NCBI GenBank assembly: GCA_964016885.1
Contig: OZ024760.1
Location: 34,348,001 to 34,412,000 of the forward strand
DNA from: Eledone cirrhosa
Taxonomy: Eukaryota
Length of the DNA stretch: 64,000 bases
Direction: 5' to 3'
The notes under the pieces were generated by a model that was given only the letters and a program-made list of their open reading frames with translations, made no database searches and was not told the origin of the DNA. Below are positions 37,193 to 40,116 of the stretch, piece by piece (positions within the stretch are counted from its first letter, which is position 1; every line of letters begins with the position of its first letter). The position numbers and the translations under genes were made by a program.

Positions 37193-40116
37193 TACATACA
37201 TATATATATATACATATATATATATATACATATATATATATATACATATATATATATATATATACATATATATATATATACATATATATATACATATATA
37301 TATATATACATATATATATATATATATATATATACATATACATATATACATATATACATATACATATATACATATACATATATACATACATATATATATA
37401 CATACATATATATACATATATACATACATATATATATGTATATATATATATGTATATATATGTATGTATATATATGTATGTATATATGTATATATATGTA
37501 TGTATATATATATGTATGTATATATGTATATGTATATATGTATATGTATATATGTATATATGTATATGTATATATATATATATATATATATATGTATATA
37601 TATATATATGTATATATATATGTATATATATATATATATGTATATATATATATATATATGTATATATATATATATGTATATATATATATATGTATATATA
37701 TATATGTATGTATATATATATATATGTATATATGTATATATATATATATGTATATATATATATGTATATATATATATATATGTATATTTATATATATATA
37801 TATATGTATATATATATATATGTATATATATATATATATATATGTATATATATATATATGTATATATATATATATGTATATATGTATATGTATATATGTA
37901 TATATATATATATATGTATATATGTATATGTATATATGTATATGTATATATGTATATGTATATATGTATATATATATATGTATGTATATATATATGTATA
38001 TATATATATGTATGTATATATATATATGTATATATATATATATATGTATGTATATATATATGTATGTATATATATATATATATATATGTATGTATATATA
38101 TATATATGTATGTATATATATATATGTATGTATATATATATATGTATGTATATATATATATGTATGTATATATATATATGTATGTATATATATATATGTA
38201 TGTATATATATGTATGTATATATATATATATATGTATGTATATATATATATATATGTATGTATATATATATATATATGTATGTATATATATATATGTACA
38301 TATATATATATATATACATATATATATATATGTATGTATATATATATATATATGTATGTATATATATATATATATATGTATGTATATATATATATATATG
38401 TATGTATATATATATATGTACATATATATATATATGTATGTATATATATATGTATGTATATGTATATATATATGTATGTATATATATATATGTATGTATA
38501 TATATATATGTATGTATATATATATATATATATGTATGTATATATATATATGTATGTATATATATATATGTATGTATATATATATATGTATGTATATATA
38601 TATATGTATGTATATATATATATGTATGTATATATATATATGTATATATATATATATGTATGTATATATATATATATGTATGTATGTTATATATATATAT
38701 ATATATATGTATGTATATATATATATATGTATGTATATATGTATATATATATGTATGTATATATATATATATATATGTATGTATATATATATATATGTAT
38801 GTATATATATATATATGTATGTATATATATATATATATGTATGTATATATATATATATGTATGTATATATATATATATATATATGTATGTATATATATAT
38901 ATATGTATGTATGTATATATATATATATGTATGTATGTATATATATATATATATATATATGTATGTATATATATATATATGTATGTATATATATATATAT
39001 GTATGTATATATATATATATGTATGTATATATATATATATATGTATGTATATATATATATATGTATGTATATATATATATATATGTATGTATATATATAT
39101 ATATATATATATGTATGTATATATATATATATATATATGTATGTATATATATATATATATATATGTATGTATATATATATATATATATGTATGTATATAT
39201 ATATATATATATATGTATGTATATATATATATATATATGTATGTATATATATATATGTATGTATATATATATATATATATATATGTATGTATGTATATAT
39301 ATATATATGTATGTATGTATATATATATATATGTATGTATGTATATATATATATATATGTATGTGTATATATATATATATATGTATGTGTATATATATAT
39401 ATATATGTATGTGTATATATATATATATATATATGTATATATATATATATGTATGTATATATATATATGTATGTATATATATATATATATATATATGTAT
39501 GTATATATATATATATATATGTATGTATATATATATATATATATATATATATATGTATGTATATATATATATATATATGTATGTATATATATATATATAT
39601 ATATATATATATATGTATGTATATATATATATATGTATGTATGTATATATATATATATATGTATGTATATATATATATATATATATGTATGTATATATAT
39701 ATATATGTATGTATATATATATATATATATGTGTATATATATATATATGTATGTATATATATATATATATATATGTATATATATATATATGTATGTATAT
39801 ATATATATATATGTATATATATATATATATGTATGTATATATATATATATATATATGTATATATATATATGTATGTATATATATATATATATGTATATAT
39901 ATATATATATGTATGTATATATATATATGTATGTATATATATGTATGTATATATATATATATATGTATGTATATATATGTATGTATATATATATATGTAT
40001 GTATATATATGTATGTATATATATATATATATATATGTACGTGTATATATATATATATATATATATATGTATGTATATATATATATATATGTATGTATAT
40101 ATATATATATATATGT
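37193..40116. repeat. ~2.9-kb (TA)n array; first ~240 bp CA-interrupted, remainder TG/TATG-interrupted
   Basis: Direct reading. Confidence 0.97.

Follow-up and report, generated by a model that had tools for sequence, protein, structure and literature searches.

In a 64,000-nucleotide stretch of the Eledone cirrhosa genome (the window; positions 34,348,001 to 34,412,000 of contig OZ024760.1, assembly GCA_964016885.1), most TA-array interruptions read TG on the + strand, and those at 37193-37436 read CA. This C-interrupted block abuts an island with hammerhead motifs, and a preliminary description regarded it as an inverted copy of the adjacent array, made in the course of the island's insertion. 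We asked whether the block is such a copy and whether it records the insertion. As described below, the locus most likely represents a real, young, local fold-back duplication that was entered afterwards by a Hydra-type Penelope-like element (PLE). The features of the locus are listed in Table 1.

Table 1. Features of the mirrored TA array and its surroundings (window positions).
Feature	Position	Strand	Basis
Short dispersed repeat with (TGA)n tail	36826..36918	+	lies to the left of the arm, 40 bases from its outer end; no sign of participation in the duplication
Outermost 30-base part of the derived, inverted copy, split off by the island	36958..36987	-	exact reverse complement of 37704-37733
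Left copy of 9-base direct repeat, read as target-site duplication	36979..36987	+	identical to 37193-37201
One extra G preceding the element's 5' end	36988..36988	+	sequence
Solo pseudo-LTR of a young Hydra-type, endonuclease-bearing PLE	36989..37192	+	recurrent 5' start to "short", tail-less 3' end
Predicted type I hammerhead ribozyme	36989..37137	+	motif positions, fold; stems I and III paired by eye
Right copy of 9-base direct repeat	37193..37201	+	identity with 36979-36987
Main part of the inverted (derived) copy, a C-interrupted TA block in a G-interrupted array	37193..37436	-	spacings, shuffles
Unduplicated spacer, putative hairpin loop, original polarity, four G	37437..37466	+	mirror geometry; edges uncertain by ~9 bases of pure TA per side
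Template arm, original G-interrupted array, likely source of the inverted copy	37467..37733	+	265 versus 267 bases, 0 mismatches, one 2-base gap
RTE-like copies in the window	6503-6719, 12775-13380, 16837-17446, 35471-36015, and others

The mirrored block and its continuation across the island

The preliminary description had listed the spacings between C bases read backwards from 37427 to 37195 and those between G bases read forwards from 37476 to 37710, 21 of 22 being identical, and both lists were reproduced exactly in the assembly sequence. The sole discrepancy between the arms is 16 versus 18, and the mirror is centred at 37451/37452. Its score of 125 compares with 20 for the best among 10 run-length shuffles, and its token score was reached by none of 60 shuffles. 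Two random spacings agree with P=0.114, which gives a naive P of ~3e-19 for 21 of 22, a value that takes no account of autocorrelation or of how the register was chosen. The spacing match is far beyond chance, and the mirror is real in the assembly. The first 16 spacings were unique to the locus within the 2.0 Mb compared, where the runner-up matched at 8 of 16, and copying of the C block from elsewhere was thereby ruled out within those 2.0 Mb.

When the island and one copy of the 9-base repeat were omitted, the resulting 265-base block aligned with 37467-37733 (267 bases) as its reverse complement, with no mismatches and a single 2-base gap that represents a slip. G polarity was found at 36016-36952 and again from 37438 on, and because the array is G-type on both sides of the C block, the C block is the derived copy. 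As expected of an inverted duplication, the block is the reverse complement of adjacent sequence, a short unduplicated spacer separates the two, and the original orientation is regained on both sides. All switch points lie within (TA)n, where microhomology is trivially present.

The inverted arm had been described as ending precisely at the 3' edge of the island, but it is only interrupted there. It resumes to the left of the island, where 36958-36987 is an exact mirror of 37704-37733 over 30 bases, 9 of which overlap with the right-hand arm, and the C bases at 36965, 36981, and 36985 pair with the G bases at 37726, 37710, and 37706. The island therefore interrupts the arm and does not cap it. 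The left-hand piece holds only three informative bases, so that its chance of fitting an allowed register is ~0.045; three minority bases in outermost position were seen at 7 of 396 polar array edges. On either side the island is bordered by an identical 9-base sequence (36979-36987 and 37193-37201), with one extra G in addition. As an alternative origin for the left-hand piece, a small fold-back of its own from 36924-36952 was considered and rejected, the predicted spacings being 14,14 and the actual ones 16,4.

The island and its family

The island (36989-37192) belongs to a young repeat with 890 candidates, the best 44 matches being 98-100% identical. It differs by 0-1 changes from its nearest copies, and its one rare base was found at 10 places in the genome. 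Copies of the family end at (TA)n in two ways, with 522 "short" and 4115 "long" ends in the genome by exact pattern matching; the long end lies 134 bases beyond the short end, and a long and a short copy often stand back to back. A tandem unit of the family contains an 830-codon stop-to-stop open reading frame (ORF). The 813-aa ORF carries RWR at 37, DKT at 115, and YRDD at 346, and also a CxCX5C linker (not CX2-5CxxC), a GIY-YIG-like C-terminal end, CxxC, and CxH. Searches of Pfam and of PDB sequences with this ORF returned no family and no match, and among its atlas neighbours GIY-YIG was present on 26-50% of members. RWK-like, DKT, YxDD, linker, and endonuclease motifs, (TA)n targeting, and a hammerhead predicted by motif are thus all present, as in the Hydra clade. 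Judged by these motifs, the young, TA-targeting family is of the Hydra type of Penelope-like elements, with the island as its predicted hammerhead pseudo-LTR.

The core motifs of the hammerhead reported previously are indeed present (CUGAAGA at 36996 and GAAAC at 37119, with a long stem II), although Rfam, under both gathering and E-value thresholds, found no hammerhead in the island and returned only composition-driven miRNA matches. Stem I, paired by eye, comprises 7 bp (36989-36995 with 37131-37137), and stem III, also by eye, 2 bp with a palindromic loop; cleavage is predicted after 37130. We take the ribozyme to be a type I minimal hammerhead with palindromic stem III. Many copies of the family begin at, or a few bases from, the equivalent of 36989, a start that would correspond to the 5' end of the RNA. 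A G precedes this recurrent start in 14 of 49 distinct junctions, a count without a formal test, and the G at 36988 may have been copied from the RNA cap.

Other copies and elements were observed alongside. A solo short-end copy (L039, around 1340-1620) is flanked by a direct duplication of ~90 bases. The island at 28204-28450 of the window has a CUGAUGA motif, is related to a palindromic tail-bearing copy at C21:34266580, and probably represents a second hammerhead PLE family. An 800-base inverted repeat of 98.75% identity (243-1041 and 1540-2339), whose right side reaches a TA array, is probably another element with inverted pseudo-LTRs, and a 3-kb tandem array with a 45-46-base unit and 91% matches is found at 50944-53962.

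Target-site duplications of the family were examined at 36 paired insertions, of which 19 were uninformative; in the other 17 the right flank contains a base other than T or A within its first 14 positions. A match of 12-16 bases at the end of the left flank was found for 14 of the 17, compared with an expectation of 7.9 when positions were shifted within the same arrays (P=1.5e-4). Of the 17 pairs, 12 belong to a set that had been chosen for a C directly behind the junction. The duplications are even in length and readable only through the array interruptions (L221-L247, L054, L074, and L089). Target-site duplications of 8, 9, and 10 bp have been reported for rotifer PLEs (PMC3846280), and those in microsatellites are described as often not discernible (Craig et al. 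2021, PMC8557442). At the present locus the duplication is 9 bases, shorter than the 12-16 of the family, a length that could have resulted from trimming at the plain 5' join. Because a staggered cut duplicates only bases that are already in duplex, the arm probably predates the cut.

Mirrors elsewhere and at element junctions

Further mirrors were searched for in a background of 1.44 Mb of contiguous sequence plus flanks, comprising 420 arrays and 172 kb, the C13 and C19 stretches having been chosen around known loci. The scan used array-only and token scoring, and matches in arrays of self-mirroring units (e.g., L029 and L060) were dropped by eye. A handful of further mirrored arrays was found in the 1.44 Mb. 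Three mirrors adjoin the 5' end of a short element that is presumably RTE-like (C21:34265297-34265790, C21:34234450-34234490, and C13:31394659), the last being weak, as its score was equalled in 10 of 100 shuffles. The first (L101:7297-7790) is a 494-base palindrome centred in a TA array, in which 10 of 10 spacings and 118 more bases are mirrored, and it is joined directly to the 5' end of the element. It is a cleaner example of a fold-back at an insertion's 5' end. Among the public reads, no record listed bridges its junction. The 118-base non-TA arm is the end of a high-copy repeat and not unique DNA; palindromes with unmirrored arrays (C21:33860042, 33920107, 34426010, and 34640910; C13:31279974; C19:27809336) were therefore dropped, possibly being element ends that lie tail to tail.

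Other mirrors lie inside arrays without any element (C21:34207074, C19:27796040, and C13:31300563). One of them, C13:31300563-31300902 (L238), is an older mirror decayed by slippage, with 7 of 11 spacings exact, and could help to calibrate the rate of run-length drift. Snap-back copying at TA ends thus recurs both with and without insertions.

When 30 of 45 selected 5' junctions of the RTE-like element were inspected, one clear fold-back was found. Two near-identical loci (L278 and L279, around 1480-1505) have an RTE-like 5' junction with an inverted copy of the downstream flank. The insertion-linked mirrors elsewhere sit at 5' ends of this element. Read in its own direction, the element, which ends in GCAGCCAC, is in most cases flanked on either side by G-type arrays (exceptions are L253, L263, and L281), which suggests that its orientation is tied to array polarity. 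At 35468-35516 of the window, a short snap-back hairpin of element sequence lies at the truncated 5' end of an RTE-like copy.

Fold-back had also been proposed to explain local polarity flips. This held for some flips, which are mirrored, whereas several flipped blocks do not mirror the sequence beside them. Over ~50 kb of the window, almost every TA array is TG-interrupted on the + strand, and polarity changes over longer distances occur in the neighbouring sequence. A C-rich block in a G-type array at 35073-35206 shows no mirror of its neighbours.

The preliminary description had proposed a genome-wide test of whether mirrors are enriched at the 3' ends of such elements. We examined 161 distinct 3' junctions (85 short and 76 long) of at least 4637 in the genome, 56 of which were informative, with at least 8 interruptions. 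Only one of the 56 adjoins a mirror, namely the locus itself, and none of the other 55 does. The sample covers all 30 short ends genome-wide that start with TACATAYA, the class most like the locus; one of these (at L238) has the older decayed mirror 130-180 bases away, not abutting. Array polarity was unchanged across 13 of 16 other informative insertions. Together with the absence of mirrors at the 55 other 3' junctions, this indicates that fold-back is no regular part of the family's insertion. The two marks of an integration footprint, mirrors above chance at 3' ends and a derived arm that ends at the element, were both absent.

Order of events and relation to known systems

We assign a probability of about 60% to a repair fold-back in the TA array, followed by insertion of the Hydra-type element into the new arm. 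The mirror is thus likely to be a DNA-repair scar that a transposon later entered, and not a footprint of the insertion. First, a break of the array near 37430 would have exposed a bottom-strand 3' end of self-complementary (AT)n, which would have folded back over a loop of ~30 bases and copied ~267 bases of its own strand (37467-37733); once free again, it would have been reconnected to the left end by TA microhomology. Switching of the template to the sister strand would lead to an identical product. Second, the element would have nicked the new arm by staggered cuts 21-30 bases from its outer end. Reverse transcription would then have begun at the internal "short" start site and run 204 bases to the 5' end of the RNA, and joining of the cDNA end would have duplicated 9 bases of the arm. 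Which step came first, which strand folded, and which enzymes acted are what we infer from the product. Support for two steps comes from the continuation of the arm beyond the island, from the alignment of the island-free block without mismatches, from the duplications that the family makes, from the lack of mirrors at its other 3' junctions, from the unchanged polarity across most other insertions, and from the mirrors that exist without an element. Of the mechanism originally proposed, fold-back and self-priming remain the best explanation of the mirror, whereas we do not favour joining or priming of the hammerhead cDNA by the folded end as part of one event, because the island lies within the inverted block with the 9-base arm repeat on both sides, as after an ordinary insertion into a pre-existing arm.

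Several observations speak against two separate steps. Both features are very young (no substitutions between the arms, 0-1 changes in the island), the duplication is shorter than the 12-16 bases of paired insertions, and the left-hand piece is informative at only three bases. The short end meets the array at an interruption, whereas pure TA follows 96 of the first 100 short ends listed. Mirrors also adjoin the 5' ends of another retroelement, the RTE-like one, so that coupling of fold-back to insertion does happen in this genome. For two independent events to have struck within 30 bases and within a short time is coincidental here, even if to be expected somewhere in the genome. By a hand estimate from the 1.44 Mb scan, with this locus excluded, ~0.2% of array bases lie in derived arms, and therefore about 1 of the 522 short ends is expected in an arm by chance.

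A single event is a tentative alternative. The element would have cut the array, and the DNA of the second-primed short end would have been resected, folded back, and extended by ~245 bases; the reverse transcriptase would then have used the folded end to copy the RNA from the short start site, and the cDNA would have returned to the DNA template 9 bases earlier, copied 30 more, and joined the left flank. This would account for the youth of both mirror and island, and short ends, being rarer (522 versus 4115), may be primed later and be more exposed. A PLE protein has been described to cut and extend both strands, from two internal start sites and without homology (PMC11167929), snap-back of cDNA ends onto nearby target DNA has been described for R2 (PMC11371274), and L1 insertions have been described with inversions at their reciprocal end (PMC11702581). 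The inverted flank copy at the RTE-like junction of L278/L279 points the same way, as does a 16-base match between the end of the left flank and the start of the spacer, which in controls arose by chance about half the time. Against these points, two extra template jumps are needed, with a back-step that happens to coincide with an ordinary duplication length, and no second case was seen among 55 informative 3' junctions, including all 30 TACATAYA short ends. We regard it as possible, though doubtful, that a folded DNA end was extended by the PLE reverse transcriptase, or by a host polymerase that then gave way to it, with a homology-independent switch to RNA and a return to DNA within one insertion. 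If so, the locus would directly document switching from DNA to RNA and back to DNA in the course of PLE integration, and interrupted TA arrays would record end-processing intermediates of PLE integration genome-wide.

Rather improbable is a linked sequence of two steps, in which the 520-base palindrome formed a cruciform or stalled a fork, and the insertion was attracted to the vicinity of the arm's base by a break or by the element's GIY-YIG nuclease. The coincidence of place and time would then disappear, the insertion does lie 21-30 bases from the arm's outer end, and TA cruciforms are described as being cut by structure-specific nucleases (PMC13645644); however, no other long mirror found has an internal insertion, and a single case cannot show targeting. 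An artefact of library or assembly (a fold-back chimeric read or a template switch in amplification) is very improbable: public reads cover only the multi-copy island and pass over the repeats, none spanning the locus, and (AT)n ends are natural fold-back sites, but the mirror is bounded and goes back to the original strand, its two arms are distinguished by a slip, only one of them carries a transposon and the accompanying duplication, and older decayed mirrors exist, such as that at C13:31300563.

Following the two-step reading, this single locus is a well-preserved repair scar that contains a transposon. The irregular G and C interruptions of TA arrays serve as barcodes, through which template switches and target-site duplications that usually go unseen in a microsatellite become visible. 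With their help a duplication of 12-16 bases could be read for the TA-targeting Hydra-type family, a result of relevance to the cutting geometry of PLEs, and fold-backs were recognised at 5' ends of the RTE-like element.

The underlying events are of already known kinds, and no published PLE insertion combined with such a mirror was found in the limited collection of literature searched. The geometry of the locus is that of the type 1-4-3-2 / 3-2-1-4 template switch (Loytynoja and Goldman 2017, PMC5453318). That study masked microsatellites, whereas the locus lies wholly within one and its copied piece is 265 bases; it favoured switching between strands over fold-back, two routes that this locus does not distinguish. 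Fold-back inverted duplications (PMC3907307, PMC7467729) share hairpin self-priming at a broken end and a short spacer, but those events are described as large copy-number changes, often capped or further rearranged, whereas the present one is 0.27 kb and locally healed. TA repeats are also known as cruciform break sites repaired by microhomology joining (PMC13645644). Inverted target DNA beside a retroelement has been described for reciprocal-end inversions of L1 (PMC11702581) and "snap-back" 5' junctions of R2 (PMC11371274), a pattern that matches the RTE-like 5'-end cases in this genome. The locus differs from it in that the long arm is on the 3' (primer) side of the element and is interrupted by the element with its duplication, instead of merely adjoining the element's 5' end.

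With the Hydra clade of C-terminal endonuclease-bearing (EN+) PLEs, as described by Craig et al. (2021, PMC8557442), the family shares RW[KR], DKT, CxCX5C, CxxC, and CxH, as well as a C-terminal GIY-YIG, a hammerhead, (TA)n insertion, a tail, and the inverted pseudo-LTR structure. It differs in unit length (~6.2-6.4 kb from the spacing of tandem copies, versus <3 kb), in tail length (~134 versus 30-40 bases), and, unlike that account, in a 12-16-base duplication that can be read owing to the array interruptions. Its two end types and priming on both strands fit the in vitro data for another PLE (PMC11167929).
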